Origin: Clostridia bacterium
GTDB taxonomy: Bacteria > Bacillota > Clostridia > Oscillospirales > RGIG577
Assembly: GCA_017513095.1 (NCBI GenBank)
Contig: JAFWDJ010000011.1
Span: forward strand, 731-64,730
Length of the DNA stretch: 64,000 nucleotides
Direction of reading: 5' to 3'
The position numbers and the translations under genes are program-made. Below, in pieces: positions 17,701 through 56,410 of this stretch; the first letter of the stretch is position 1, and the number at the start of each line of letters is the position of its first letter. The notes under the pieces were generated by a model. The model worked only from the letters and a program-made list of their open reading frames with translations, searched no databases and was not told the DNA's origin.

Positions 17701-20700
17701 AGGCTTCCGCCAAATCCCAAAAGACCGAGTCCGGTACCTATATCGTCGGTCATGTCCTTTGCTATCTGCTTAGCCTTGTCGAAGTCCTCGTCAAGCTCCT
17801 TATTGTATTCATCATATTTATTCTGCGGATCGCCGCCGCCATCGCCGCCATCGCCGCCGTTGTCGCACGGACCTCCGCTGCCTCCGGGAGGAGCGGGCGT
17901 CGGCATCGGGGGCGCGGACGGAGTCGGGAGATCGTCGTAATCATGGGTAAGAAGCTCCCCGGCTTCCGCTACCTTTTTGGCTGCCTGTAATTCGTCGATA
18001 TGTTCCTTGCCCCAGTTAATTATCGGACCGAACAAAGAACCAAGCCCGTCCGCGGACATCGTCTGCGCCTCTTCCCCTGCGTCTATAAGGGGCAGAGACA
18101 TTACGCCGAGGCCGCTTATTCTGGACGTATACGTCAACTCATCCGCGTTGATATCGACGTCAACTCTTATTTTAGCGGGCGTCCCGGACAAAAGTACGGT
18201 CGCAGCTTCATCTGTGTTAAGTGCAGGGTTTTGGTCCTTCCACTCGTAGTATATCTGATACTGCGCGCCGTCGGCCGTTTCAACGGCAGGCAGATACCAG
18301 CGGTTGTCGGGGCCGAAAAGGTCTTTCATTGCGGCCTCGAACTCTGCTTCGCCGTAATCGTAAAGCCCGTTTGCAACAAGCGATACGTACTTATCCCAGT
18401 CGGCTATCGCCTGATCCTGAATCTCCTGCGATTCGAAGGGCTTAAGCACAACTCCCCTGTCCGCGCTGTACGTATGTGCGTAGGGTGAGGGGTCTTCGTC
18501 CAAATCTATTTCCGCCACGGGGGCCGAAAGATCGGTCTCTTCCTCCCATTCTATCCAGAAGGCGCTTACGGGATGTATCGCGTCTCCCAGCTTTCCTTCT
18601 CCTTTAAAAGTATCCCCGTAACGAACAAGCTTTAACGTATCAAGCTCGCTTTCCGTATCGGCCTTTAAATATACCGCTTTAACTCTATCGGGATTATTGA
18701 ATGACACTGATGCCCATAAGTTTTGAAACGGTGATATCGTTAAATAGGAATGATCGAAAAGCGAATATCCGCATACATTTGCCGATTTAAGCGTGGGCGA
18801 GCCGTCATATACTACGGAAAAATACGCCTCTGCCGTTTCAAGCGGCTCGCTTTCACCCTCTCTTGAAACGCTTACCCTTGCTTTTCCTTCGTGTATCTTA
18901 TTTTCGGGGAATAAAGTTACGGTATACTTTCCCACAGGGCCGTAAAGCGCTATTGTTTTCTGCGTTCCGTCAACAACGCTTCCGTCGGGTCTTATCTCCT
19001 CGACGGTAAGTATATAATCATCGCCGGAGCCGCCGTACTTTGAAAGGTCAAACTCGGTAAATACAGAAATGCCTTGGCTTGCCGCATCCGTCTTTCTTAC
19101 CTTTGGATTATATATATCGGCTGAAAGCACGCTGTGATATGCAGCCGAAGAAGCTAACGGAACGGTAAATTCGCGGCCGTCAAAAGTAAGCTTTCGGAAA
19201 AACTGCGATACGGCGCCGTTTTCAAGCGCGTCGGCGGAGATATCATAGCTCAGATGCAGTACGTTAAGGTCAACGCCGTTGTCATTTATATAAACGGTAT
19301 TATCCTTTACCTCATAGGATACAGGCGCATTTCCCCATCCGGGCACTCTTGCAAGCGAAACGTTCTTTGCTCCGTCCGGCAGTATTACCATAGCCGACTG
19401 GTCTGAAACCTCACTGCTTCGCGAATATTGTATGGTGACTCGCGTTTTAACGCGGAAGGTATCCGCGGTCAAATACGATACCTCCGGGCCTGAGGAGAAT
19501 CCGTTCTCCGATTTATTTATGCGGTTCATAACGGGATCGTTTTCTATCAACAGTGTACCCGGATCGCTGCTTTGGGGCGTAACTTTTACGTATTCGCGCG
19601 AACTAAACAACCAGTACCGGGGATCTTCTCCGGCGTCTGTGTTCCATGTACCGACCACGAGGTAAGACACTCCGGGTATAAGATATACCTTTGTCTCGGA
19701 CAGCGTAGTCACCTCGTCGAATACTTTTTCGCCGGTCGACAGCGCATATACGATAATTCTTCGCGGCGTAAGATAATAATCGTCCGTCAAGGTGTTTATC
19801 TTTACCGTATACTCCGCGGCCGTCATTTTATCGACCGTTACGTTAATTTCATCGGGTACGCCCGCGGAACCCTTTGCAAGCGTAAACGTGCCCGTTCCCG
19901 AAAGACTGTAATCTTCGCCTATGCCGGATACGCTCAGCGTAACGGGAGTGCCCTTCGGAAGCTGAAGCGCGTTGAATAATACGCTTCCCTTCCCCGTCGG
20001 TGTATTCAGGGAGGCCGTGCTGTTGCCTATTCGGTAACAAAGCGATGAGGCGTCCGCGCTGCTCTGCCCGATGGGAATAAGGTTCCCGTCTTCCTCTATA
20101 AGCACGTTAACTTTAAGCTCAAGCGAACCCCTGAACGTGCGGTCAGCCTGTATCGTAACGCTCTGCGCGTCGAATGCTGCACTTGTATTCGCGTTTACAT
20201 AATACTCGCCGTCAACGCCCGTAGACGCGTCGTAGTCAATACTTGCGTAGAACGGCGAATGATTCACGCTCGTCCACGATACGGCAGCTTTGCCGTTTTC
20301 GTCGGTCGTTGCCTCTGCCATGGTATGGGACGACTTCAAATAGACAAAGCGGGCGTTAGGCGCAGGCTCTCCCAACTCGTTTTCGATATTTACCAAAATG
20401 GTGCGCGTCTCCTGACTCACTGTGTCAAGTACCGCCGTTTCAAGACGCAGAGCTTTACCGGTTGCGCCAAAGCTTAAAGTGCGCGGCTCCGCGCGAAGTG
20501 TGCCGTACTCGGTCTTGGCGTAGAACGCTTCCGTAGTTACTTTGACGTCTCCGTCCGTGCGCAGGGGAATTATTTCGGTATCCGTTTCATACCAGATGAC
20601 CTGTCCGCTTTCATTCGTAACGCCGCCGTGTCTTGAGTCGGTCGAAACCCTTACCCCCTCAATCGGGGTTCCCTGCTTATCGACAATCCTTAAGGCGAAC

Positions 20701-23700
20701 AGATACTTTTCGGCGGAGACGTTAACGGACGCGTTCGAGTACGATACCGTTATGTCCGTCCATCTGTAAAGCCTCAGTCCGTTTCCGTCTGTCAGAACGA
20801 GGGCGTAATCATCGCCCGCGGGCGCCGTGAACGTACACGTTCCCGTTTTGGCGGAAATTTCGCTTTGAGCGCTGAATCCGTTCCCCGTCAAGGTAAGACT
20901 CATACCGGAAACGTTTGTAAGCTCTGCGAAGTCGTAATTTACACTAAAGTCGACGGCGCGGTCGATGCGGTCGTTTAACTCTGCGGAAAGCTTCTCGCCC
21001 GAAGCGTCGGCCTCGAAGTATATCTTCGTTACGGCCGCGGCCTCGTCGGGGAGCGTAAAGGCCGCCGTCCACAATACGCCGCTTCCCTGCGCATCGCACG
21101 TAAGCTCGGTCGTACTGCCGTCGTTTAATTCAAGCGTAAGCTTCGCCGCCGCGCTCTGTATGCTTCCCGATACGTGCGCGTTCACGCTTATATCGGCGCC
21201 TTTCATACTGCCGAGCCTGTTCTTATCGTATGCGGCGGCAAGGCGGTTGACGCTCGGTTCGTTCGTAAGCGTGACCGATACGGCTTCGCTCTCCTGCGAG
21301 CGGTTGCCCGCCGCGTCAATAGCGCTCACCGTATACGTGCACGTCGTGCCGGGCTCTATGCCCAGGTGCGTATACATGCGCGTGCAGATGCGGGCAAGCT
21401 CCGTACCGTTGCACGTAAGAATATATGCGCTTACGGCCGTGTCATCCGTGCTTCTGCCCCACCTTAAGGAAACGCTGCCGTTCGTTTGAAGCTCTGCGGT
21501 AAGTCCTCCGGGTACGGTGGGAGGCGTCGTGTCGGACGCGGCGTCGATATTCGTGCCCGCGGTCGCTGCGGCGCTTACGGCGCCGTCGGCGTCGACGGAG
21601 TATATCGAATAATTATAGAAGCGTCCTCCGCTTAGCTGCGCATCGGTATACGTCGTGCCCTTTATGTTGTCGGCAATTATCTCGCCGTCGCGCGCGAGGC
21701 GGTAGTGGTCGCAGTCCTCAGACGCGGACGCCGTCCACGTAAGAACCGCCTTGCCCGAGGCGGGCACCGCCTTAAAATCGGTCGGCGGCAGAAGGATCGG
21801 CGACGCCGTCGATTCGCCCGTTACGGTAAAGAATACGCTTTCACTCTTAAACGGATTCGTTTGTCGGCCAAGCGTCTTTATCTCGGCCTTTGCGGTATAC
21901 GTTCCCGCCGCAAGGCCGGTAAACTCGGCCACTTCTTCCGTTATATATTTCTCGCTCGAGGCCACGGGCGTGTTCGTGGAGTCATAAACGGTTATCTTCA
22001 CTGTGGGCGTCTCTGCGTCATCGGCCGACTCAAGCGACGCCTCTGCCTCTTCAAGCTCGCCGTCCGGATCGTTCAAGTATGCAAAGTACACGGCCACGTT
22101 TTCGGCAGAGTCCTTTATTCCCGCGGCGATCCTTACGGTATCGCCGACCGCATACTGACTTTTTTCTACGTATATGCCCGCCGAAAGCTCCGTGGTTCCA
22201 ACGTATTTGCTTGTGCCGACGGTCGATTCGGGAGCTGCAAAGAAGTAGTATTCCGCATACTCGCCGTATGCCTCGTAATCGCGGAATCCTATATAAAGCT
22301 CTTCCTTTTCGCGGCAGTTCTGATATATCACGCGGTCAAACCCCGACCAGCCGAGTGTGTATTCAAGCGGTTCGTCGGGCGTCTCGTCAAACGCGAACCA
22401 GTACGCGGCGTCGGCGTACAGAGAATCCTCCTCCGGAGTCGAAAGCGTGAGTCCCGGGTTCTGTTCGTTAAACGCGATCTCAATCGTGACCGTCGCGCCC
22501 TCGGGCGTATTCGTAAGGTCGGCCGTCGCGCGTCCCATAAGGAGTGCGCCGTTGTCAACGCCGAATACCGCGACGTCGTATTTGCCGCCTACGGGGAGAT
22601 CGGCATAATACGAGCTGGTATTTGCGTCCGCGGATTCGTCCGCCGCGTCGGAGGCGCTGCTCGGGATAAAATACTCATCCGAATTCGCATATTCATACAC
22701 GAAATTGCGTATTTCGGGGTCGCCGTTCTCATCCTCAAGGTAAGCGTACACGCCGCCTCCGTACAGCTCGCCCATGTCGTAGCTGCCCTTATCGTTTTCG
22801 GTGATTAAAACGACCTTAACGCGTGCGGAAGGACGGCTTTCCTGCGGATTCATCGTATATTCAAGCGTGAAGCTGTCATTTCCGAGCCATCCGAGCGCGG
22901 ACTGGTTAAGCTCTAAAACGATGCGGTTTGGGCCCACGGGCGCGCTCGCATGGTTTTGCGTGAGAACGAACTCGGCAACGCCCTCCCCGTCGGGCTCGTA
23001 CGCGCCGCCCCTGCTGTAGCCGCGCATATTCCAAGTACCGCTTGCGGAGTCGTAATCCTCGTTATAGATACTGAAGCCGCCGTACGTCTCGGACGCGGTG
23101 CTGTTAAAGTCCTTCGTGCCGCTGTAATAGTATCCGTAATCGGTCACCGGGTTTCCTATGCTGTCGGTGAGCTTTAAGGAGAGCGTAAGGTCGCTCTGTC
23201 CGATTTTCGGGGACGCGGGCGTAAGAGTAAGATTTTCGGCCTTAAGCGGGCCCGCGCCGATTGAGAGCGACTTTGCGCCCGTAATCGTCTGCTTTCCCAA
23301 AGACACGCCGATATATCTGTCTCGCGGATTCACGAGGTATCCCGTTATCTCGTATTCACCCGGCGCGACGCTCACGCTTCCGCCCGCTGCGGGAAGCTCA
23401 AATACGGCGCCGTCGAGCGAGAGTAAAAGCCGGCTCGGCTGATACGTGCCCGAAGGCATAAGCGTTACCGTATTCGCGGACGCGAGATCTGCGTCAAGAT
23501 TCCATACGATATCGTCGTCGACCGTTTTCTTCAAAATATAGTCTTCGCCGCTCGCGCAAAGCGAAATCTCGGAGTCGCACGAAAGCGAGAACGAAGCGCT
23601 TGCGCTCTCGTCGAGCGTAACGAGCTCAAAGCTGCCCCCCGCGGTCATGGCGGTTATATTCGCGCCTTCGAACGCGTCGCTGCCCGTTACGGTCACGTTT

Positions 23701-25514
23701 ATGCTGTCGCTTAAATTTACGTTAAGATTCTTTGATATGCCGAAGCTCTGCAGCGTGATGCTCTTTATCGCGTAAAAGCCCTCGCCGGATACGAAGAGCG
23801 TGGCCGCTGCTTCGGGATTGCTTAAATCGAGGATGCATCTGCCCTTTGAATCGGCACGGGCACCCGTTTCCACGCCGTATTCGTCGACGATAAGAGCCGT
23901 TGCGCCCGTCGCGGGCTTATTGTCGGGGCCGAATACCGTAACGGTCACGGTATTTTCGGAGCGTATCACGTAAAACCTTCCGCATTCCTCAGAATTGGAC
24001 GCGGGCTGCTCCACAGATTGACCCATCGCGTCGGTAAATCGGCATTTCCATGAATAGAACGACTCGTCAAGCGCGCTCGTATCGAAGGACGCCTCTATAT
24101 ATTCGCGCTCGGTCCCGTTAAGCGTGACCTCGCCCAAAAGAATGTCGCCTGACGAGCTGTATACGTCGCTTGCGTATACGCTCATCGTCGCGGCTTTCGC
24201 TCCCGGGTTGTATAGTAAGCCGCCAAGCGTTATTTCATCCTTAAAAGCCTCCGTGCTTACGCCCGGATCGGTCGTAAAGAGTACGCCGCCGCTTCCCATG
24301 AGCGAAATGCCGTTCGCGTAGTCCGTGAGGAGATTGGACGCATTCTGCGAACGGTCGAACGCGGTCATAACGGGCGCCATGTCGGACGAGTTCGCCGCAG
24401 CTGAGCTCTTCAGCGCCGCCGTCATGCCCGAAAGCAGCGCGGCGGAGGCCGACGTACCCGTAAACGTCTCATACGAGCTGCCCGCGCCCGTGGTCAAAAG
24501 ATCGGTGCCGGGAAGCCAGAAGAAGCTTACGCCCAGGTCCGAGGAGCGTACAGGCTTATTCGACCACGACTCGTACGAATAATAGGTCGAGTTCTTTTTC
24601 GCGTTCTTATGCGAGCCCGCGCAAATAACGCCGCGAAGCGCCGCGGGGTAATAATTGTAGCCTGCCGTGGAGATCGAATTTCCGTCGTTTCCGGCGGCAG
24701 CTATAACGGTGCAGCCCTTCGAAATCGCGTAGTCGACCGACTCCTGCATCGCCGCGGGAGCCGATTTCATGCTCTGACCGAGCGAGAGGTTTATTATATC
24801 CGCGCCGTTATCGGCAGCATAGCGGATACCCGCGGCGATATTGGCCACGGTACCCTTGTCATTCTCGGAAAGAACTCTTACGGGCATCACAGATACGGGC
24901 ATTTTGCCCGCAATTCCCGCAATACCGATATTGTTGTCGGCGTTGGCGGCGATAAGTCCCGCAACCTTGGTGCCGTGCGACTCCAACGATACGTCGCTGT
25001 TTTCGTCGGCCGCTATCGCCTTATCCGAAACTATATCCCAGCCGTCAATAACGCGTCCCGAAAGGTCGGGATGCGCGCCGTTTATGCCGCTGTCAACGAC
25101 AGCAACTGTAACGGGCACGGCGCTTGCGAGATAATTCTCGTCAAGAAGCTGCCATGCGCTCTCGGCATTTATAATCGGGATGTACTGCTGATCGGAGTAC
25201 CTCTCGTCGTTATAGTAGCCGCAGGCTTCCATTACGGCATTCTCCGTAACGGATATTACATCGGGACGGCCCGCATAATCGGACGCGTCCCCGCCTGAAA
25301 CGAGAACTGTCCCCTCCCACAGCAGTCTGCCGCCGTTTACGTCTGCGAACGCCTGCGCGGCCGCCGAATCGGTAAACGTGACAATCCATTCGCCTGACGC
25401 GCCGCGGTCATCGGCAGACGCCGCCATTACGCCCATCGGAAGCATGGTCGCAATCATGGCGAGCGCAAGCAGAAGCCCCAGCGCCTTTTTGAACGATCTT
25501 TTCATTTCCGCCAC
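14781..25514 (-). CDS. Giant (3577 aa) secreted S8 subtilisin-like protease with multiple Ig-like/FN3/Big_2 domains and C-terminal SLH anchor
   Basis: - Single uninterrupted ORF with a GGAG RBS.
- Signal peptide: KKALGLLLALAMIATMLPMGVMAASA.
- S8 catalytic triad: VAVVDSGI (D, ~25095), HGTKVAG (H, ~24975), GTSASAA (S, ~24452).
- Two FN3 domains at ~21255-21795.
- Big_2 domain at ~16465-16710.
- Chitobiase-C-like Ig domain at ~15615-15850.
- Listeria-Bacteroides (Flg_new) repeat at ~15365-15570.
- Three SLH repeats at ~14784-15340. Confidence 0.9.
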   Translation of the reverse strand: MAEMKRSFKKALGLLLALAMIATMLPMGVMAASADDRGASGEWIVTFTDSAAAQAFADVNGGRLLWEGTVLVSGGDASDYAGRPDVISVTENAVMEACGYYNDERYSDQQYIPIINAESAWQLLDENYLASAVPVTVAVVDSGINGAHPDLSGRVIDGWDIVSDKAIAADENSDVSLESHGTKVAGLIAANADNNIGIAGIAGKMPVSVMPVRVLSENDKGTVANIAAGIRYAADNGADIINLSLGQSMKSAPAAMQESVDYAISKGCTVIAAAGNDGNSISTAGYNYYPAALRGVICAGSHKNAKKNSTYYSYESWSNKPVRSSDLGVSFFWLPGTDLLTTGAGSSYETFTGTSASAALLSGMTAALKSSAAANSSDMAPVMTAFDRSQNASNLLTDYANGISLMGSGGVLFTTDPGVSTEAFKDEITLGGLLYNPGAKAATMSVYASDVYSSSGDILLGEVTLNGTEREYIEASFDTSALDESFYSWKCRFTDAMGQSVEQPASNSEECGRFYVIRSENTVTVTVFGPDNKPATGATALIVDEYGVETGARADSKGRCILDLSNPEAAATLFVSGEGFYAIKSITLQSFGISKNLNVNLSDSINVTVTGSDAFEGANITAMTAGGSFELVTLDESASASFSLSCDSEISLCASGEDYILKKTVDDDIVWNLDADLASANTVTLMPSGTYQPSRLLLSLDGAVFELPAAGGSVSVAPGEYEITGYLVNPRDRYIGVSLGKQTITGAKSLSIGAGPLKAENLTLTPASPKIGQSDLTLSLKLTDSIGNPVTDYGYYYSGTKDFNSTASETYGGFSIYNEDYDSASGTWNMRGYSRGGAYEPDGEGVAEFVLTQNHASAPVGPNRIVLELNQSALGWLGNDSFTLEYTMNPQESRPSARVKVVLITENDKGSYDMGELYGGGVYAYLEDENGDPEIRNFVYEYANSDEYFIPSSASDAADESADANTSSYYADLPVGGKYDVAVFGVDNGALLMGRATADLTNTPEGATVTIEIAFNEQNPGLTLSTPEEDSLYADAAYWFAFDETPDEPLEYTLGWSGFDRVIYQNCREKEELYIGFRDYEAYGEYAEYYFFAAPESTVGTSKYVGTTELSAGIYVEKSQYAVGDTVRIAAGIKDSAENVAVYFAYLNDPDGELEEAEASLESADDAETPTVKITVYDSTNTPVASSEKYITEEVAEFTGLAAGTYTAKAEIKTLGRQTNPFKSESVFFTVTGESTASPILLPPTDFKAVPASGKAVLTWTASASEDCDHYRLARDGEIIADNIKGTTYTDAQLSGGRFYNYSIYSVDADGAVSAAATAGTNIDAASDTTPPTVPGGLTAELQTNGSVSLRWGRSTDDTAVSAYILTCNGTELARICTRMYTHLGIEPGTTCTYTVSAIDAAGNRSQESEAVSVTLTNEPSVNRLAAAYDKNRLGSMKGADISVNAHVSGSIQSAAAKLTLELNDGSTTELTCDAQGSGVLWTAAFTLPDEAAAVTKIYFEADASGEKLSAELNDRIDRAVDFSVNYDFAELTNVSGMSLTLTGNGFSAQSEISAKTGTCTFTAPAGDDYALVLTDGNGLRLYRWTDITVSYSNASVNVSAEKYLFALRIVDKQGTPIEGVRVSTDSRHGGVTNESGQVIWYETDTEIIPLRTDGDVKVTTEAFYAKTEYGTLRAEPRTLSFGATGKALRLETAVLDTVSQETRTILVNIENELGEPAPNARFVYLKSSHTMAEATTDENGKAAVSWTSVNHSPFYASIDYDASTGVDGEYYVNANTSAAFDAQSVTIQADRTFRGSLELKVNVLIEEDGNLIPIGQSSADASSLCYRIGNSTASLNTPTGKGSVLFNALQLPKGTPVTLSVSGIGEDYSLSGTGTFTLAKGSAGVPDEINVTVDKMTAAEYTVKINTLTDDYYLTPRRIIVYALSTGEKVFDEVTTLSETKVYLIPGVSYLVVGTWNTDAGEDPRYWLFSSREYVKVTPQSSDPGTLLIENDPVMNRINKSENGFSSGPEVSYLTADTFRVKTRVTIQYSRSSEVSDQSAMVILPDGAKNVSLARVPGWGNAPVSYEVKDNTVYINDNGVDLNVLHLSYDISADALENGAVSQFFRKLTFDGREFTVPLASSAAYHSVLSADIYNPKVRKTDAASQGISVFTEFDLSKYGGSGDDYILTVEEIRPDGSVVDGTQKTIALYGPVGKYTVTLFPENKIHEGKARVSVSREGESEPLETAEAYFSVVYDGSPTLKSANVCGYSLFDHSYLTISPFQNLWASVSFNNPDRVKAVYLKADTESELDTLKLVRYGDTFKGEGKLGDAIHPVSAFWIEWEEETDLSAPVAEIDLDEDPSPYAHTYSADRGVVLKPFESQEIQDQAIADWDKYVSLVANGLYDYGEAEFEAAMKDLFGPDNRWYLPAVETADGAQYQIYYEWKDQNPALNTDEAATVLLSGTPAKIRVDVDINADELTYTSRISGLGVMSLPLIDAGEEAQTMSADGLGSLFGPIINWGKEHIDELQAAKKVAEAGELLTHDYDDLPTPSAPPMPTPAPPGGSGGPCDNGGDGGDGGGDPQNKYDEYNKELDEDFDKAKQIAKDMTDDIGTGLGLLGFGGSLLGDATLSQKDNVIDSLYDAQKKHLQDINNALKDLDPDGGGGGGGGSNPDCDPPNGKQPPAGGANSTAPRSNNSLIDPSGTVYEVNTANTLSGVKASLYYYNGSVPAGFDESNAEWQSEYWQTLPAWSEEGAWTLWNSTDYGQPENPLSTDADGHYGWDVLAGAWKVVFEKAGYLPAESMVLPVPPPHLDVDINMTSTGTPAVTEVRADKNGEVIYITFDKYMTLDSLKGDGSVRIFFGDTELSGEITAADATVTAEGAKQTPTEGGAQSGVTVGREFIYAIDQTAFDPLPVGASFRVTIDGEVSCYNGMALGAKYDSGLLTVPEKNPTPPVTAIAFADYENENMTVGDSADLSAKIVLTGGDGSEAITWSTNDAEVASVDANGKVTAVSEGTATIFAECGGLSAARGVVVVRGPVTADPANNKVEFCRSDNIVVDKRCWMWSVADNYDLEGKVEGDTKFIPVSWQITEDGVVMAGAELAESETTVVTPYYPKTDGATAVGSITYQEYRYNGVSWKPVGSPVTVTNTRVVAQVTGLALKTPPAKQTVGEPLKLSDMVLNISLSDGTVSEAPYEKIEKYGITYSIEPGTVLTENDTTLTLTHTTTGITLDVSLMEEPASAAAPVISPAGGTFQNSTTVTIASATEGAKIYYTVDGSAPDENSTPYAAPFAISDTTTVKAVAFADGLKPSTVTTAVFTKQSGSGGGGGGSSGKSSFRITFDTDGGIAMDSVVVSGGKVDLSKYVPVRDGYEFDGWYSDKELTKPITAPITISSNTTVYAKWTEKTEPSGGLPFVDVSEGQWFYGDVKYVYENGLMVGTDETHFSPDLKTTRGMIVTVLYRLAGSPEVTGECPFDDVGSLSYCRDAVTWAAENGVVTGYNEKTFGPDDTITREQMATIIYRYVKLSGGGFEGAWSMRLDFDDAGDISDWAFEAVSWCCMNGIITGMDENTLNPQGSATRAQTAAILHRFIELMNEA

Positions 25515-50872: not shown

Positions 50873-50910
50873 ATATCGGCAAAGCGAAAACGCTTTGCCG
50901 ATATTTTTTT
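50873..50910. terminator. Bidirectional terminator between the VWA gene and the recombinase gene
   Basis: ATATCGGCAAAGCG-AAAA-CGCTTTGCCGATAT followed by a T-run. Confidence 0.8.
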
Positions 50911-51514
50911 ATATTGCGTCGTCTCTTGTCCATTTAAGGAACGTCTTATGCGACACGCCGAGCTTGACAGCCGCCTTTCTTGCCGACATTTTCCCGTTCT
51001 GCCACAGTATGAGCATATCGTCGTAGCGCGCCGGACGCCTTTTCGGCCTTCTGCCGAACTTTACGCCGTTCGCATGGGCCGCCGCAATCCCCTCCCTCTG
51101 CCGCTTACGAATAAATTCGCGCTCCGTCTGCGCAACATAGCTTAGAAGCTCCAACACGATGTCCGCGATGAGCGTGCCCGTAAGGTCGCGGTCCTTGTGC
51201 GTGTCTAAAAGCGGCATATCGAGCACGACTATCGCCGCGCTTTTTTCCTTCGTGATAATGCGCCATTGTTCGAGTATTTCAAGGTAGTTTCTCCCCAGAC
51301 GGTCAATGCTTTTTATCACAAGCGTATCGTTCGGGCGAAGCTTGTTTATAACGCGCTTATAGCCCTTTCTGTCAAAATCCTTCCCCGACTGCCTGTCCGA
51401 AAAAATATTCCCCTCCTCTACGCCGTATTCGCGCAGCGCGGCAAGCTGCCTGTCCTCGTTCTGATCGCGCGACGATACGCGCATATAGCCGTAAATGCAG
51501 GTCTTCCTTTTCAT
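50909..51514 (-). CDS. Small serine recombinase (resolvase/invertase family)
   Basis: The start was moved to the ATG at 51514 (MKRKTCIYGYMRVSSRDQNEDRQ), with an AGGAGG RBS. The catalytic Ser motif is YxRVSS. The C-terminal HTH is MSARKAAVKLGVSHKTFLKW. Length is 201 aa. Confidence 0.85.
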   Translation of the reverse strand: MKRKTCIYGYMRVSSRDQNEDRQLAALREYGVEEGNIFSDRQSGKDFDRKGYKRVINKLRPNDTLVIKSIDRLGRNYLEILEQWRIITKEKSAAIVVLDMPLLDTHKDRDLTGTLIADIVLELLSYVAQTEREFIRKRQREGIAAAHANGVKFGRRPKRRPARYDDMLILWQNGKMSARKAAVKLGVSHKTFLKWTRDDAI

Positions 51515-51674
51515 AATAAATCCTCCTTTGATAAAGCAGTATTTAGAGACCATTTTATACCGCAAGGCCGACAAATTTCCGCGCCGAACTTCTTGCATTA
51601 TTCACATATTTTTACTTTAAAACGGCGCGTTTTGTGCGGTTTTCACCGAAAAGAAAAAATCGGCGCAAAATGTA

Positions 51675-51858: not shown

Positions 51859-51915
51859 AGGCAAAGGCGCCGTGATACCGTTTTTTCGTATCAGGCGCCT
51901 TTGCCTATATTTTTT
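51859..51915 (+). terminator. Leader terminator 3
   Basis: AGGCAAAGGCGCC...GGCGCCTTTGCCT with an inner TGATAC/GTATCA hairpin, followed by ATATTTTTT. Confidence 0.6.
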
Positions 51916-51961
51916 GAAAACGCCGTACTTTTACGGCAGAGAATCTGAGGAGATGATAAAA

Positions 51962-53722
51962 ATGGATGAAGTAATGAGAGAATTGATTTCGGCGACCGCG
52001 TCCGAACAGCTTTTCGGCGTGTGGTTCCTCATCGGAGCCGCGCTCGTATTCTGGATGCAGGCCGGATTCGCAATGGTAGAGGCCGGATTTACGCGGGCGA
52101 AGAACACGGGCAACATCATAATGAAGAACCTTATGGACTTCTGTATCGGCACCGTGGTATTTATACTTATAGGCTTCGGCCTTCTCATGGGCGAGGACGC
52201 CATGGGCTTTATCGGAAAGCCGGGCTTCGATCTGTTCACGTCGTACGCGGACTTTGATTTTTCAAGCTTCGTATTCAACCTCGTATTCTGCGCAACGACC
52301 GCAACGATAGTTTCCGGCGCAATGGCCGAACGCACGAAGTTCTTATCCTACTGCATCTATTCGGCCGTGCTCTCGGCGCTCATATACCCCATCGAGGCGC
52401 ACTGGATATGGGGCGGCGGCTGGCTTATGCAGGCGGGCTTTCACGATTTCGCGGGCTCCTGCGCAATACATATGGTCGGCGGCATTTCGGCGCTCATCGG
52501 CGCGAAGATTTTAGGCCCGCGCATAGGAAAGTTCACGCGTGACAAAAAAGGCCGCGTCACTAAGGTAAACGCCTTCCCCGGCCACAACATCGCGCTTGGC
52601 GCGCTCGGCGTTTTCATACTCTGGCTCGGCTGGTACGGCTTCAACGGCGCCGCTGCGACGACCGTGGAGCAACTCGGCTCGATATTCTTAACAACGACGG
52701 TCGCACCCGCCGTCGCAACCGTTGTATGCATGATATTTACATGGATAAAGTACGGCAAGGTCGACGTTTCGATGTGCCTTAACGCCTCGCTTGCGGGACT
52801 CGTTGCGATAACCGCGGGATGCGACGCCGTATCCGCGCTCGGCGCGGCCGTTATAGGCGGTATCGCGGGCCTTCTCGTCGTGTTCGGCGTATGGCTTCTT
52901 GACCATAAGCTGCGCATAGACGACCCCGTCGGAGCCGTGGCCGTCCACGGTTTAAACGGTATTTGGGGCACTCTCGCCGTGGGACTCTTCGCAACGAGCG
53001 ACGCGCCCGGATACTCGATCGCGAACGCGTCGGGCGAAACGCTCACAGGCCTCTTCTACGGCGGCGGCTTTGAGCTTTTAGGGCTTCAGGCTTTGGGCTT
53101 TTTGGCCGTGGCTGCATGGACCGCCGTCACGATAACCGTGATTTTCCTCGTTATAAAGAGCGTGCTCGGCCTTCGCGCATCGAAGGAAGAGGAGCTTTCG
53201 GGACTTGACGCGGCGGAGCACGGCCTTCCCTCGGCTTACGCGGGCTTCGCGATGCTTCCCGACTACGTTGACGAAGGCGCGCCCGCTCCCGTTATCGTTT
53301 CGGGCGACGTTCCCGTTGCCGAGGCCGTTACGGTAAGAAAGATGCCCGTATTCGACGACGGCTCGCCAAAGTTCACGAAGGTCGAGATAATCTGCAAGGA
53401 GTCGCGCTTCGAGACTTTAAAGAACGCGCTCATGGACATAGGCATAACGGGCATGACCGTGTCGCACGTTTTGGGCTGCGGACTTCAGAAGGGCAAGCCC
53501 GAGTTCTACCGCGGCGTACAGTTAGAAGCGACGCTGCTGCCTAAAATTCAGATAGACATCGTTGTAAGCCGCGTACCTGTAAGAAGCGTCATCGAAACTG
53601 CGAAGAAGGTGCTTTACACGGGCCACATCGGCGACGGAAAGATATTCGTCTACGACGTTGAGAACGTCGTAAAGGTGCGCACGGGCGAAGAAGGCTACGA
53701 CGCGCTTCAGGACGTGGAGTAA
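51962..53722 (+). CDS. amt: Ammonium transporter fused to a C-terminal P-II (GlnB/GlnK) domain
   Basis: The start was moved to the ATG at 51962 (MDEVMREL), 9 nt after GAGGAG. The upstream part of the track ORF overlaps leader terminator 3. The Amt signature is FWMQAGFAMVEAGF. The last ~110 aa form a P-II fold (TKVEIICKESRFETLKNALMDIGITGMTVSHVLGCG...). Confidence 0.88.
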   Translation: MDEVMRELISATASEQLFGVWFLIGAALVFWMQAGFAMVEAGFTRAKNTGNIIMKNLMDFCIGTVVFILIGFGLLMGEDAMGFIGKPGFDLFTSYADFDFSSFVFNLVFCATTATIVSGAMAERTKFLSYCIYSAVLSALIYPIEAHWIWGGGWLMQAGFHDFAGSCAIHMVGGISALIGAKILGPRIGKFTRDKKGRVTKVNAFPGHNIALGALGVFILWLGWYGFNGAAATTVEQLGSIFLTTTVAPAVATVVCMIFTWIKYGKVDVSMCLNASLAGLVAITAGCDAVSALGAAVIGGIAGLLVVFGVWLLDHKLRIDDPVGAVAVHGLNGIWGTLAVGLFATSDAPGYSIANASGETLTGLFYGGGFELLGLQALGFLAVAAWTAVTITVIFLVIKSVLGLRASKEEELSGLDAAEHGLPSAYAGFAMLPDYVDEGAPAPVIVSGDVPVAEAVTVRKMPVFDDGSPKFTKVEIICKESRFETLKNALMDIGITGMTVSHVLGCGLQKGKPEFYRGVQLEATLLPKIQIDIVVSRVPVRSVIETAKKVLYTGHIGDGKIFVYDVENVVKVRTGEEGYDALQDVE

Positions 53723-53730
53723 AATATGAA

Positions 53731-53773
53731 AAAAAGAGGCGGCGTCCGGGGAAATCCCGGCGCCGCCTTTTTT
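53731..53773. terminator. Bidirectional terminator after amt
   Basis: The stem is GAGGCGGCG(T)CCGGG-GAAAT-CCCGGCGCCGCCT, with an A-run on the left and a T-run on the right. Confidence 0.8.
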
Positions 53774-53819
53774 GAGCCGTGCCTTTATCCTTGCGGGGGC
53801 GGATTATACTTTAAGCCGC

Positions 53820-53966
53820 TTACGCCCGCGAAGCCGTAATAATCATTATCTGCGAATGCGGGTATTGCGCTTTAAGTATCTTTTCCGCGTCGTACTGCGA
53901 ATTCGCGCTCACGATCTGCTCCGTAACGCGGCCGTTGACCGTGAATTTTATTCTGAAGCTCTGCAC
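53820..53966 (-). CDS. 48-aa conserved small protein, paralogue 1 (not in ORF track; GTG start)
   Basis: GGAGGTGAAAAC precedes the GTG start. The translation is (M)QSFRIKFTVNGRVTEQIVSANSQYDAEKILKAQYPHSQIMIITASRA. It is the same length as the ORF at 55253-55399 and 26/48 residues are identical. 15 of the identical residues use different synonymous codons. Confidence 0.7.
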   Translation of the reverse strand: MQSFRIKFTVNGRVTEQIVSANSQYDAEKILKAQYPHSQIMIITASRA

Positions 53967-54114
53967 GTTTTCACCTCCCCGCGGCTTTATACACCGTCCG
54001 AACGGCCCGCCGTACTCCCCGGACCGTTCGCGCCGAAATCTGCGTGTAGTGTCTTACGCTTATATTATATCACGTTTTAAGCAAAATTGCCGTATATGTT
54101 AAAATTTTTTTAGA

Positions 54115-55155
54115 CTATATCTCGTCAGCGAAGCCGAAATAATCAGCAAGCGCGATAATCTCGTCCGTCCTGCCGAATTTCTTTGCGGCGTACTTATAAT
54201 ACTTCATATCATACGGATTGAGCCTTATGACGTTTACGAAAGCGCTTTTTATCTTATCCTCGGGGAATCCCGCCGAGGTGAGATTTTTAAATACGTTTTC
54301 GGCGCTTTTTATCTCCGCCTCCCCGGGCAGAACGATATCGACGCCGTTTTCTATAAGCAGCTCGACAAGCGTACCGTGAACGAAAAAGTAATCCGAAAAT
54401 ACGTGAAGCATAAGCTCGGCGGCGTCGACAGCTGCGAACATCGCCTCTTTCTGTTCCTTCGAGACGCCTATCCTCTCCTTATGACCGCTCACCATGCCGT
54501 CGGCTATCTGCCCGTAGAGATTTCCGAAGGCGCCGCCTGCATTCCTCGTTTTATATCGGTCTGCGGCCATCGTGAGAATTGCCGTGGACAAATTGTTTTT
54601 GTTGCCTTCCGCGGCTTTGTTTCCCGCTGAAACAACCGTCTCGTAGTCGGATATCGCGCTGCGGAAGCGCGCCTTATGCTTGGCAGTTAAGGTCTCCGCG
54701 GAAACAGAAAACACGTTTTCCGAAAACAGCGTATCCATCGCGTATTTTATGAGCGGATACAGGTATTCGTCGTAAATACCCGGGAAACCTTCGATAAAGC
54801 TTACGTAGTCGCGCACCGTCGCGCCGTATTTTTCCGCCGCTTTTTGGGTGCACTCGCGGGCGAGCAGATAAAACTGCTTTCGATAGGCGTTAAAGACGTC
54901 CATTTCGGCGGGCACCTCGATATTTTCTCCGAACAGCTCGAGCGTCACCGCTTTTCCCGTCGGTCTTTCGGGCTTTTTTATAAGCGCGGCGTTATCCTTC
55001 GTTTCTTTCGGTATGCTTGTCCCAAGGTCAAATTCCTGCTTTAAAACGTATCCGTTTGCGTCGGATGCGTCCTGACGTGACGCCTTTCCCGCTTTATTTA
55101 CGTATTCGCTTCCGGCCTTCTTCGCGCCGTCAATATATTTTCCAAACAATCCCAT
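54115..55155 (-). CDS. 346-aa hypothetical protein (no recognisable family)
   Basis: GGAGGTG RBS. The N-terminus is Lys/Ala/Gly-rich, and the remainder looks helical. Confidence 0.7.
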   Translation of the reverse strand: MGLFGKYIDGAKKAGSEYVNKAGKASRQDASDANGYVLKQEFDLGTSIPKETKDNAALIKKPERPTGKAVTLELFGENIEVPAEMDVFNAYRKQFYLLARECTQKAAEKYGATVRDYVSFIEGFPGIYDEYLYPLIKYAMDTLFSENVFSVSAETLTAKHKARFRSAISDYETVVSAGNKAAEGNKNNLSTAILTMAADRYKTRNAGGAFGNLYGQIADGMVSGHKERIGVSKEQKEAMFAAVDAAELMLHVFSDYFFVHGTLVELLIENGVDIVLPGEAEIKSAENVFKNLTSAGFPEDKIKSAFVNVIRLNPYDMKYYKYAAKKFGRTDEIIALADYFGFADEI

Positions 55156-55252
55156 ACTTTATCACCTCCGTGAAAATGAGGCCCCCGATTTATAAAAGAA
55201 CAATTATAAACCGGAGGTGATTCTTTGTTTCGTGCCGCTTGCGTGAAAGTTT

Positions 55253-55399
55253 TTAAATCTTCACAGTTGCTATAAAAGAGATTTTCGAATTCGGATACTG
55301 CGCCTTAATCAGCTTCTCGGCGTCAAACTTTGACTGAGCTCTCACTATCTGCTCCGTTTGTCGTCCGTCCACTCTGAACTTAATCTTAAATGTATACAT
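55253..55399 (-). CDS. 48-aa conserved small protein, paralogue 2
   Basis: This is the internal ATG of the track ORF 55253..55531, preceded by GGAGGTGAAAGA. The translation is MYTFKIKFRVDGRQTEQIVRAQSKFDAEKLIKAQYPNSKISFIATVKI. Confidence 0.7.
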   Translation of the reverse strand: MYTFKIKFRVDGRQTEQIVRAQSKFDAEKLIKAQYPNSKISFIATVKI

Positions 55400-55457
55400 T
55401 CTTTCACCTCCTTTGGCGAAGCGGCCCCTTGCCGTATGCCGCCTCTTTTTTCTTGTT

Positions 55458-55673
55458 TCATCTTGAGCAAAACGGGCGAAGTACGCACCCCGGGCATGCG
55501 AGCGTAAAACCGTTTTCATCCTTTTTCCCATACTGACAGCCCGCGCTGCCCATAAGGTCCTTTTTTTCGTCGCGTCTGTCCATCTTCTCGGTAATCCTGT
55601 TTGCTATCGCGGCGCCTACTGCGATGCGAAGAATATCGCCGAAAAAGCCCGAGCTTCTGTTATAGTCCGACAT
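55458..55673 (-). CDS. 71-aa hypothetical protein with C-terminal four-Cys knuckle
   Basis: The GGGAGG RBS overlaps the stop of the upstream XRE gene. The N-terminus is amphipathic (GFFGDILRIAVGAAIANRI). The C-terminus is CQYGKKDENGFTLACPGCVLRPFC, i.e. CX13CX2CX5C. Confidence 0.6.
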   Translation of the reverse strand: MSDYNRSSGFFGDILRIAVGAAIANRITEKMDRRDEKKDLMGSAGCQYGKKDENGFTLACPGCVLRPFCSR

Positions 55674-55679
55674 AATATA

Positions 55680-55910
55680 TCAACCTCCCGCCGCCGCATG
55701 ACTTTGTCTCTCGCCTCGAACGTCGATAAAAAGCTCGGGGCTTACGTTTAAGGCAAGACATATTTCTCTTAATTCGTCCGCATAAAGCGTGCGTCTGCCG
55801 CTTAGCATCGCATTCAGATCCGTCTGCGATATCCCCGACTTTTCGGCAACGGCAACACGCTTTAACCCGTTTTCATCAATATACGTGCTTACCCTCTCGT
55901 ACACTTTCAT
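55680..55910 (-). CDS. XRE-family HTH transcriptional regulator (76 aa)
   Basis: HTH_3 pattern: LKRVAVAEKSGISQTDLNAMLSGRRTL. Confidence 0.8.
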   Translation of the reverse strand: MKVYERVSTYIDENGLKRVAVAEKSGISQTDLNAMLSGRRTLYADELREICLALNVSPELFIDVRGERQSHAAAGG

Positions 55911-55926
55911 TTCATCACCCGTTATA

Positions 55927-55970
55927 ACAGTATTGCTGTATTTAATTAGATAGTATCACAGTTTTTCTGT
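55927..55970. promoter_or_regulatory. Two ACAG-N5-CTGT palindromic operators in the divergent XRE promoter region
   Basis: ACAGTATTGCTGT is at 55927-55939 and ACAGTTTTTCTGT is at 55958-55970. Their centres are 31 bp apart. The second fills the -35/-10 spacer of the minus-strand promoter. Confidence 0.55.
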
Positions 55971-55978
55971 ATTATCAA
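55950..55978 (-). promoter_or_regulatory. Promoter of the minus-strand cassette operon
   Basis: The minus strand reads TTGATA-17 nt-TACTAT with an extended TG. Confidence 0.5.
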
Positions 55979-56010
55979 GACTTTTTTACACGATTTCAAA
56001 AGTATTTTTC

Positions 56011-56038
56011 TTTACTTTCCAGATTTTAAAGGTATAAT
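56011..56038 (+). promoter_or_regulatory. Promoter of the plus-strand XRE gene
   Basis: TTTACT-16 nt-TATAAT. Confidence 0.5.
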
Positions 56039-56061
56039 ATACAAAGAGAGGTGATTTCGGC

Positions 56062-56379
56062 TTGCGAAAATATGAGATTGGCGACAGGATAAGAAAATAT
56101 CGTGAGGCTCGCGGCTTGACCCAAAGGCAGCTTGCCGAGATGCTGGGTGTGACAGGCAGCAGAATCTCGAATTGGGAGCAGGGAACGAACCGACCTGACG
56201 CGGATATGCTGTCCGATTTATGCAGGGCTCTTAAAGTTTCCCCGAGCGTCATGCTCGACGTCAGGCTCACCGAAGACGACTTTACCGAGCGGGAGCGAAA
56301 GATTATCTACGCGTACCGCAGCAGCCCTAAGGTGCAGCATGCCATCGACATTCTATTGGGCCTTGACGACAATATATAA
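56062..56379 (+). CDS. XRE-family HTH transcriptional regulator (105 aa)
   Basis: TTG start after AGAGGTGA. The HTH_3 is IRKYREARGLTQRQLAEMLGVTGSRISNWEQG. Confidence 0.8.
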   Translation: MRKYEIGDRIRKYREARGLTQRQLAEMLGVTGSRISNWEQGTNRPDADMLSDLCRALKVSPSVMLDVRLTEDDFTERERKIIYAYRSSPKVQHAIDILLGLDDNI

Positions 56380-56382
56380 TAG

Positions 56383-56410
56383 AAAAACGGCGGATTATTC
56401 CGCCGTTTTT
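56383..56410. terminator. Bidirectional terminator between the XRE gene and cobC
   Basis: AAAAACGGCGG-ATTATT-CCGCCGTTTTT. The cobC stop codon lies in the loop. Confidence 0.75.

Follow-up and report, generated by a model that had tools for sequence, protein, structure and literature searches.

A repressor-gated mobile-element cargo module built of undescribed protein families in a Clostridia bacterium

The locus described here is a six-gene cassette in a stretch of 64,000 nucleotides (nt) of DNA from a Clostridia bacterium (assembly GCA_017513095.1, contig JAFWDJ010000011.1, positions 731 to 64,730 of the forward strand), referred to below as the window. The cassette consists of two divergent genes for XRE helix-turn-helix (HTH) proteins of 76 and 105 amino acids (aa) and, behind the 76-aa gene, of genes for a 71-aa protein with four cysteines, a 48-aa protein (s48a), a 346-aa protein and a second 48-aa protein (s48b). 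The features are listed in Table 1. The closest described systems are the cI-rexA-rexB region of phage lambda, the integrative mobilisable or phage-satellite-like islands of Firmicutes, type II toxin-antitoxin modules with XRE regulators and, for the 48-aa proteins, the small proteins T7 Gp2, YkzG and phi29-type p56.

As in lambda cI-rexA-rexB, two divergent HTH repressors are accompanied by palindromic operators that overlap core promoters. The cargo is co-operonic with one of the repressors and includes, besides a larger soluble protein, a small one that bears a hydrophobic helix, and in the parental elements it is located between the switch and a recombinase. The cassette differs from lambda in that its cargo follows the Cro-sized and not the CI-sized protein, in that its CI-like protein is without a peptidase (S24) domain, and in that the recombinases of the parental elements are of the serine type. 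The cargo shows no relation in sequence or fold to RexA or RexB, and may be likened to phage exclusion genes by layout only. The likeness to the Firmicutes islands lies in the relatives of the cassette, in which an identical switch and cargo slot are found beside a CHC2/Toprim primase, a small resolvase and a large serine recombinase, and which include four IMG/VR contigs. Unlike such islands, the window copy is without primase or large recombinase and sits between amt and cobC, as in a related species. Type II toxin-antitoxin modules with XRE regulators resemble the cassette in having an XRE regulator, small neighbouring genes and tight repression. They differ from it in that the XRE genes of the cassette are switch partners and not co-transcribed antitoxins, no recognised toxin domain is present, the three cargo proteins are not together in every locus, and the 48-aa gene and the 346-aa gene can each occur without the other.

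The six-gene cassette is real and conserved, and is a two-repressor switch governing three proteins of undescribed families. The six open reading frames (ORFs), both terminators and the divergent XRE pair were all found where an earlier reading of the letters of this DNA (the original prediction) had placed them. Only the 76- and 105-aa proteins match described families (HTH_19 and HTH_3, respectively). For the s48b, 346-aa, s48a and 71-aa proteins no above-threshold match was obtained in Pfam, PHROGs, PADLOC or NCBIfam. The original prediction had left these four proteins outside described families, and this was upheld by the same searches together with Foldseek against PDB and BFVD and a PDB profile search; none of the proteins could be placed in a well-characterised family, an outcome on which the prediction had been staked. 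Conservation of the small ORFs in relatives carrying the 346-aa gene, set beforehand as a test, was found.

The control region between the divergent XRE genes is 151 nt long and holds two ACAG-N5-CTGT palindromes, here called operators O1 and O2. The pattern has two matches in the whole window, both of them at O1 and O2, against 0.23 expected. For comparison of control regions, the equivalent stretch was taken from 13 related loci. Most of the 13 show a TTGAC-type -35 element, a palindrome in the spacer and the extended -10 element TGTGATATGAT. In most of them, too, a second palindrome lies ~31 bp beyond the first, immediately before the ribosome-binding site, and a related site (ATCAAGAA..TCTGTA) is located close to the other promoter, on the side of the 105-aa gene. 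The TATAAT of the 105-aa-gene promoter is also kept in the relatives. The promoter-and-operator layout was found again in at least 12 related loci, and the comparative evidence for a repressible promoter, as predicted from these layouts, is strong.

Proteins of the 105-aa type carry a C-terminal helical extension of ~40 residues. The orthologues of the 105-aa protein (E 1e-46 to 1e-60) pair with proteins of the 76-aa type, and the orthologues of the 76-aa protein (E 1e-27 to 1e-47) head the operon of the 346-aa gene in at least 14 other loci. In a prophage-like locus (L035), a 235-aa homologue of the 105-aa type is on the integrase side and the 76-aa type heads the opposite operon. Because of the C-terminal extension and the arrangement in L035, the 105-aa protein was taken to be CI-like and the 76-aa protein Cro-like. 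No peptidase domain was found in the 105-aa protein in a Pfam scan. With two divergent HTH proteins and with repeated palindromes overlapping a promoter in a layout kept in relatives, the switch is of the ordinary CI/Cro type. A cI/Cro-like switch had been proposed from the outset, and is borne out by the HTH_19 and HTH_3 matches and by the promoter-operator architecture in at least 12 loci. The assignment of each XRE protein to particular operator sites is presumptive, and the mutual repression and bistability expected of such a switch are putative.

Relatives of the cassette were compared at 18 genome loci and in four IMG/VR contigs, all from gut and rumen Clostridia. The specific XRE pair and the 346-aa protein occur together in at least 15 loci. 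Downstream of the gene for the 346-aa protein, ~12 loci encode a small resolvase (Pfam, 8e-33), frequently then a DSPc-like protein, and a large serine recombinase (PHROG integrase, 2.5e-120). In the mobile-element loci a CHC2/Toprim primase (PHROG, 9e-41) is found on the opposite side of the switch. The slot between the Cro-like gene and the 346-aa gene is variable: it is occupied by the four-cysteine and 48-aa genes, by the 48-aa gene alone, by a gene for a 284-aa, a 219-250-aa or a 336-aa protein, or is empty. In locus L032 the same switch and recombinases surround a 752-aa Cys-tailed protein in place of the 346-aa protein. Because of this swap and the variable slot genes, the 346-aa protein was interpreted as cargo that small integrative elements can exchange in a variable slot.

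The window cassette has neither primase nor large recombinase. Since its relatives stand in an element setting, the mobility genes are missing here, and its GC content is 5-10 points under that of the flanks (0.45-0.50 in the cassette vs 0.55-0.60), the cassette was interpreted as a stranded regulatory-plus-cargo module. Gene order among the relatives places its derivation in integrative elements with serine recombinases from gut Clostridia. An origin in a mobile element or prophage remnant had been among the options raised earlier, and is supported by the primase, small resolvase and large serine recombinase that adjoin the switch and the 346-aa gene in the relatives.

Several further genes of the elements and their surroundings were recorded. 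A 229-aa small serine recombinase (Sin/gamma-delta type, PDB phmmer 8e-25) is encoded in the window at 50909-51598 (-), beyond amt and on the same strand as the cargo operon, and a small resolvase is in the corresponding position in a relative (L043 5924-6562). With the small resolvase encoded after the 346-aa gene in the mobile elements, the 229-aa recombinase shares just 23 % identity; it could be left over from the element or have no connection with it. Reverse transcriptases of group II intron type are encoded in or beside elements with the switch and the 346-aa gene (L025 4036-5280 (+) and L026 1849-3084 (-); RVT_1 1e-40, RVT_N, GIIM; PHROG 3.6e-74). The 284-aa slot protein, present in L016-L020 and L026 (for example L018 4384-5238 (+)), matches OGG/HhH-GPD in part (PADLOC OGG, 2e-8), and its C-terminal loop, C-X6-C-X2-C-X4/5-C, resembles the Fe-S loop of endonuclease III.

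In the syntenic relative (locus L001) the gene order is cobS, cobC, the divergent XRE pair, a gene for a 77-aa Cys protein, a 48-aa gene, a 342-aa gene and amt. The cassette is thus in the same slot, its ORFs are intact, and the large protein is 57 % identical to the 346-aa protein. Identities between the window and L001, with the ratio of nonsynonymous to synonymous substitution rates (dN/dS), were 86 % for Amt (0.075), 67 % for CobS (0.20), 65 % for CobC, 79 % for the 105-aa XRE protein (0.10), 67 % for the 76-aa XRE protein (0.17), 57 % for the 346-aa protein (0.11), 52 % for s48a (0.17) and 53 % for the 71-aa Cys protein, for which dN/dS was not computable with dS saturated. The ratios are rough because dS is saturated. 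The values for the cassette (0.10-0.17) fall inside the range of its housekeeping neighbours Amt (0.075) and CobS (0.20), and these comparisons indicate that the cassette is not decaying and that its genes are under purifying selection. The cassette had earlier been assigned to an accessory slot; in this lineage that description does not hold, since in two species-level relatives the cassette keeps its synteny and is subject to purifying selection.

The family of the 346-aa protein was collected by exhaustive HMMER search, which gave 290 clusters at E<=1e-3 and 75 at E<=1e-30; the conserved domain spans residues ~66-344. In a word-indexed homology search a single relative was returned (57 % identity), and a profile query added only P0148. 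The names of the family clusters were all empty or 'hypothetical protein'. A homologue is encoded by an isolate, Eubacterium sp. OM08-24, at locus L014. The AlphaFold2 model of the 346-aa protein (predicted local distance difference test score (pLDDT) 88.6, predicted template modelling score (pTM) 0.81) consists of a beta-hairpin followed by ~12 helices, two of them of 29-31 residues and one of ~39. Foldseek with this model gave nothing significant in PDB (best E 0.18, template modelling (TM) score <0.2) or in BFVD, and the PDB sequence-profile search gave no match. The 346-aa protein founds an unannotated protein family.

The N-termini of the family are interchangeable, as judged by eye in the ~150 listed members. 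About one third of these begin with an amphipathic M(G)LFDK...AKK helix and about one half with a zinc ribbon (both scored by eye). Rarer fusions are to the L7/L12 C-terminal domain, the DnaJ cysteine-rich domain, a trypsin-like peptidase or an F5/8-type C domain. A Gly-rich hydrophobic stretch is present in the middle of the domain in many members. The hydrophobic moment of the amphipathic N-terminal helix, MGLF(G/D)K...AKK, is 0.41-0.52. The 346-aa protein was not assigned to PspA/Vipp1, with no match to these in Pfam and none among the Foldseek PDB matches listed.

The 71-aa protein consists of a Gly/Ala-rich hydrophobic helix, then KKDLMG and four cysteines spaced C-X13-C-X2-C-X5-C. Its GGGAGG ribosome-binding site is located in the final codons of the 76-aa gene. 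Both the knuckle and the position of the ribosome-binding site had been described before, and were confirmed from the sequence. Free-standing orthologues are present in L001 and L022-L024. A module of the 71-aa type is also found at the C-terminus of the domain of the 346-aa family in 10 of the ~150 family representatives (hidden Markov model (HMM) E 5e-27 to 3e-4). These ten fusion proteins are of about 284-453 aa, and their tail consists of a Gly/Ala-rich hydrophobic helix, K-D-L-[LMF]-G in most, and four cysteines. The natural fusions are the best evidence on the point, and on their account the 71-aa and 346-aa proteins probably work together.

The four cysteines are invariant across the relatives. 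Their spacing is C-X13-C-X2-C-X5-C in both the window and L001, and varies among the relatives within C-x7-16-C-x2-4-C-x5-7-C. The arrangement C-Xn-C-X2-C-X5-C is the spacing of Wbl-type and Endo III-type [4Fe-4S] sites, which the cysteines of the 71-aa protein presumably recall. The motif is mentioned in PMC5635160. No Whib match was found for the 71-aa protein in Pfam. Similar four-Cys tails were recognised by eye on an unrelated 752-aa protein (L032 4616-6874 (-), …GCAKTYGGDCSTCNIRHGCSRYLY) and on an unrelated 305-aa protein (L004 7208-8125 (+), …KRDLIGQTGCARNYGGDCSDCNVRSGCARYFF). Because the tail also ends these two proteins, it was interpreted as a portable C-terminal module. Homology of the 71-aa tail to the Fe-S loop of the 284-aa glycosylase-like slot protein was considered and dropped, as the HMM of the Cys module misses the 284-aa protein.

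Orthologues of s48a were detected directly upstream of the 346-aa homologue in L001, L003, L007 and L022-L024, with an HMM made of the window sequences and those of close relatives. The adjacency holds even where the large protein is only ~30 % identical. The invariant positions of the s48 family are T-E-Q, V, A and S. With the 48-aa protein as query, a word-indexed search returned nothing other than the query itself, and the family was not found in IMG/VR. A structure model was built from the two window paralogues only; it has a pLDDT of 94.5 and a beta-beta-alpha-beta topology. In PDB, Foldseek matched the model to YkzG (RNA polymerase epsilon; probability 0.99, TM 0.62-0.66), to T7 Gp2 (probability 0.99, TM 0.71, root-mean-square deviation (rmsd) 2.3 Å), to the uracil-DNA-glycosylase inhibitor p56 and, more weakly, to the T4 antitoxin Dmd. 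The best matches are full-length (47-48 columns, rmsd 2.3-2.8 Å). The beta-beta-alpha-beta fold of YkzG and Gp2 is thus present in the model, though at E 0.056-0.08.

The 48-aa proteins share with T7 Gp2, YkzG and phi29-type p56 the fold, a similar size and a mobile-element origin. The differences are a sequence identity of 12-15 %, E-values short of significance and the lack of any Pfam family reaching its cutoff. No Pfam match to the YkzG/RpoY and Gp2 sequence families was found for the seven 48-aa sequences at E<=1 or higher, and neither YkzG nor Gp2 was recovered in a PDB profile search. The likeness to YkzG, Gp2 and p56, as predicted from the model, is one of fold and not of family membership. 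According to one report (bioRxiv 10.1101/2021.06.06.447298), RNA polymerase epsilon resembles Gp2 and does not occur in Clostridia. The best match to the DpnD/PcfM-like family (PF14207) reached 17.0 bits (E 0.006), below the 25-bit Pfam gathering cutoff; this sub-threshold match was found in 2 of the 7 sequences and covers residues 19-40 only. A literature search on DpnD/PcfM and comparable elements gave nothing usable. A secreted peptide of Rap-Phr or arbitrium type was dropped as a candidate, since the 48-aa protein lacks a signal sequence and its model predicts a folded domain. A 48-aa domain embedded in the long-form proteins of the 346-aa family was likewise dropped, with no HMM match there.

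The second copy, s48b, is 56 % identical to s48a and scores 1e-27 with the HMM of the s48 family. It has no counterpart in L001 and is lineage-specific. An extended -10 element of its own had been proposed for s48b. The motif (TGATATAAT) is present upstream of the gene, with no recognisable -35 element, and is missing from the list of the promoter scan. It is a candidate for an independent s48b promoter, and because of the missing -35 and its absence from the scan its activity is presumed only.

The gap between s48a and the 346-aa gene is 97 nt in the window and 93 nt in L001, and in the window it contains a hairpin. The sequence ATCACCTCCG (55212-55221), which forms the 5′ flank and arm of this hairpin, is a perfect complement of CGGAGGTGAT (55163-55172), the ribosome-binding site of the 346-aa gene. 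Pairing of ATCACCTCCG with CGGAGGTGAT, in competition with the 14-bp hairpin, could act as a translational gate. The pairing was dropped as a conserved regulator, since it is absent from L001.

For the function of the cassette, the explanation favoured here, and held tentatively, is a stranded element-derived module that is kept by selection and whose cargo has a conflict function. That function, whether exclusion, abortive infection or addiction, is a best guess. In the mechanism proposed, the 105-aa CI-like protein would occupy O1 and O2 and hold the cargo promoter shut. Upon derepression the 346-aa protein would join the 71-aa protein, possibly at the membrane; an assembly of this kind is proposed because of the amphipathic MGLF(G/D)K N-terminus of the former and the Gly/Ala-rich helix with a putative metal-binding Cys4 knot of the latter. 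The two together would be the effector, serving in the exclusion of incoming phage or mobile DNA, in abortive infection or in addiction. The 48-aa protein would bind and restrain, or retarget, the 346-aa protein or a partner from the host or the invader, a role proposed because of its fold, which is that of partner-binding small proteins (Gp2, epsilon, p56). The s48b protein, expressed from its own extended -10, would buffer leaky expression. It is conceivable, if doubtful, that the 346-aa, Cys4 and Gp2-fold 48-aa proteins make up an undescribed three-part conflict system carried across gut Clostridia (~290 clusters), with a fold absent from PDB and a small subunit perhaps acting on RNA polymerase or on an invader protein.

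Several observations weigh against a conflict function. No PADLOC, toxin-antitoxin or other functional model matched the cargo proteins. In PADLOC-DB 2.0 the four cargo proteins and a long-form homologue were all without a match, and only the HTH proteins hit generic regulator models; the tie to a known toxin-antitoxin, abortive-infection or defence family that had been suggested for the cassette was not obtained. No relative was found in sequenced phages and plasmids by tblastn with short and long forms of the 346-aa protein, and no catalytic pattern of conserved His, Cys or Ser residues is seen in this protein. The 71-aa protein has a hydrophobic helix that would make a weak membrane span (Kyte-Doolittle 1.14 over 19 residues). 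For the 48-aa protein the fold matches are not significant (E 0.056-0.2, identity 12-26 %) and concern a simple fold. Most homologues of the 346-aa protein, including most long-form loci, are without a 48-aa gene. In a metagenomic locus (L045 4419-5138), a 49-aa s48 homologue follows an 89-aa gene, opposite a 74-aa XRE gene and with no 346-aa homologue; because of this arrangement the s48 protein was taken to have an existence independent of the 346-aa protein. In the elements, finally, the Cro-sized protein heads the cargo operon, which continues into the recombinase genes, and for this reason a role in the lifecycle of the induced element fits equally well as defence.

A toxin-antitoxin or addiction module in the strict sense would have the 346-aa protein, with or without the 71-aa protein, as toxin, the 48-aa protein as proteinaceous antitoxin and s48b as its constitutive source. 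A small, well-conserved gene immediately upstream of a large one is as expected for such a pair, as are the duplicate 48-aa copy with an independent extended -10, a 48-aa fold like that of small protein inhibitors (among them the T4 antitoxin Dmd) and an operon under tight repressor control. This reading is unlikely. The 48-aa gene is present in just seven of the loci with the 346-aa gene that were examined, the window counted, and in L045 it occurs without the large gene. No toxin domain or model was matched in Pfam, NCBIfam or PADLOC, and gaps of 97 and 93 nt (window and L001) are unlike the tight coupling usual in type II modules.

Rather improbable is a role in the lifecycle of the parental element, in which the 346-aa protein and its partners would serve the element after induction (excision, replication, host takeover or control of the switch) and the chromosomal copy would be a leftover. 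The operon headed by a Cro-sized XRE protein runs into the resolvase, the DSPc-like gene and the large serine recombinase, the specific XRE pair accompanies the 346-aa protein in at least 15 loci, and a fold like that of Gp2 or epsilon would suit a factor acting on RNA polymerase. Purifying selection in two lineages with no primase or large recombinase nearby argues against this reading. In L032, moreover, switch and recombinases are kept and another gene replaces the 346-aa gene, and distant homologues of the 346-aa protein are found in non-mobile contexts.

A similarly low probability is given to a domesticated host function, that is, a repressor-gated sensor of membrane stress or redox state with Fe-S or zinc at the Cys4 site and a membrane-binding helical protein. 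Vertical inheritance of the cassette in the same slot is consistent with domestication, and so are the amphipathic N-terminal helix with its hydrophobic moment of 0.41-0.52, the four invariant cysteines and their spacing in the window, which is presumably that of Wbl/Endo III-type [4Fe-4S] sites. This spacing is not kept among the relatives, and no match to the fold of PspA or Vipp1 was found. A distribution that is patchy in the word-indexed search, where two relatives came up, also speaks against it, as do the low GC content and the ties of the family to mobile elements. A decaying prophage or element remnant without present function, to which the absent mobility genes, the low GC content and the small resolvase gene beyond amt might point, is very improbable, given that two lineages, at saturated dS and with dN/dS of 0.10-0.17, both retain all ORFs, promoters, operators and terminators in intact form.

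Table 1. Positions in the window of the genes and control elements of the cassette.
Feature	Position	Strand	Basis or remark
Left-border bidirectional intrinsic terminator, common to the convergent amt-PII gene	53732-53773	both	fold
s48b, second 48-aa gene	53820-53966	-	GTG start; ORF list
Extended -10 motif TGATATAAT upstream of s48b	54064-54072	-	read from sequence
346-aa gene	54115-55155	-	ORF list
Hairpin between s48a and the 346-aa gene	55182-55217	-	terminator-like in scan; 14-bp; fold z -3.1
s48a, first 48-aa gene	55253-55399	-	ATG inside longer mechanical ORF
71-aa four-Cys gene	55458-55673	-	ORF list
76-aa XRE HTH gene	55680-55910	-	ORF list; HTH_19 8e-8
Operator O2, ACAG-N5-CTGT	55927-55939		11-23 nt downstream of the 76-aa-gene -10
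Promoter of the 76-aa gene operon	55950-55978	-	-35 TTGATA, 17-nt spacer, TG-extended -10 TACTAT; promoter scan
Operator O1, ACAG-N5-CTGT	55958-55970		within the spacer of the 76-aa-gene promoter
Promoter of the 105-aa gene	56011-56038	+	TTTACT, 16 nt, TATAAT; promoter scan, 10/12 positions
105-aa XRE HTH gene	56062-56379	+	TTG start; HTH_3 1e-18
Right-border bidirectional terminator, common to the convergent cobC gene	56383-56410	both	12-bp stem

Both borders of the cassette are formed by strong hairpins flanked by A and T runs. The left terminator folds at -33.2 kcal/mol (z -5.4) on the + strand and at -28.9 kcal/mol (z -4.7) on the - strand, and the right terminator at -19.3 kcal/mol (z -5.9). 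Translational coupling had been proposed for the small genes of the operon; it stands for the junction of the 76-aa and 71-aa genes only, as the gaps beyond this junction are 58, 97 and 148 nt. No Rfam family was found inside the cassette. In the neighbouring amt gene (51872-53722 (+)), an ammonium transporter and a P-II (GlnK-like) domain are encoded in one polypeptide (Pfam Ammonium_transp and P-II). Elsewhere in the window a single ORF of 3577 aa is present (14781-25514 (-)).

The cassette is a repressor-gated mobile-element cargo module made of undescribed protein families. Its switch is a textbook device. The cargo is of another sort: it includes a family of ~290 clusters with a confidently predicted fold unmatched in PDB and BFVD, and is carried by elements of abundant, mostly uncultured Clostridia of the gut and rumen. 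If the cargo acts in conflict between host and mobile DNA, it would be a new system from poorly sampled bacteria, in the form of a compact repressor-gated module that is directly testable. If it serves the lifecycle of the elements, these would be small integrative elements of a class not described before.

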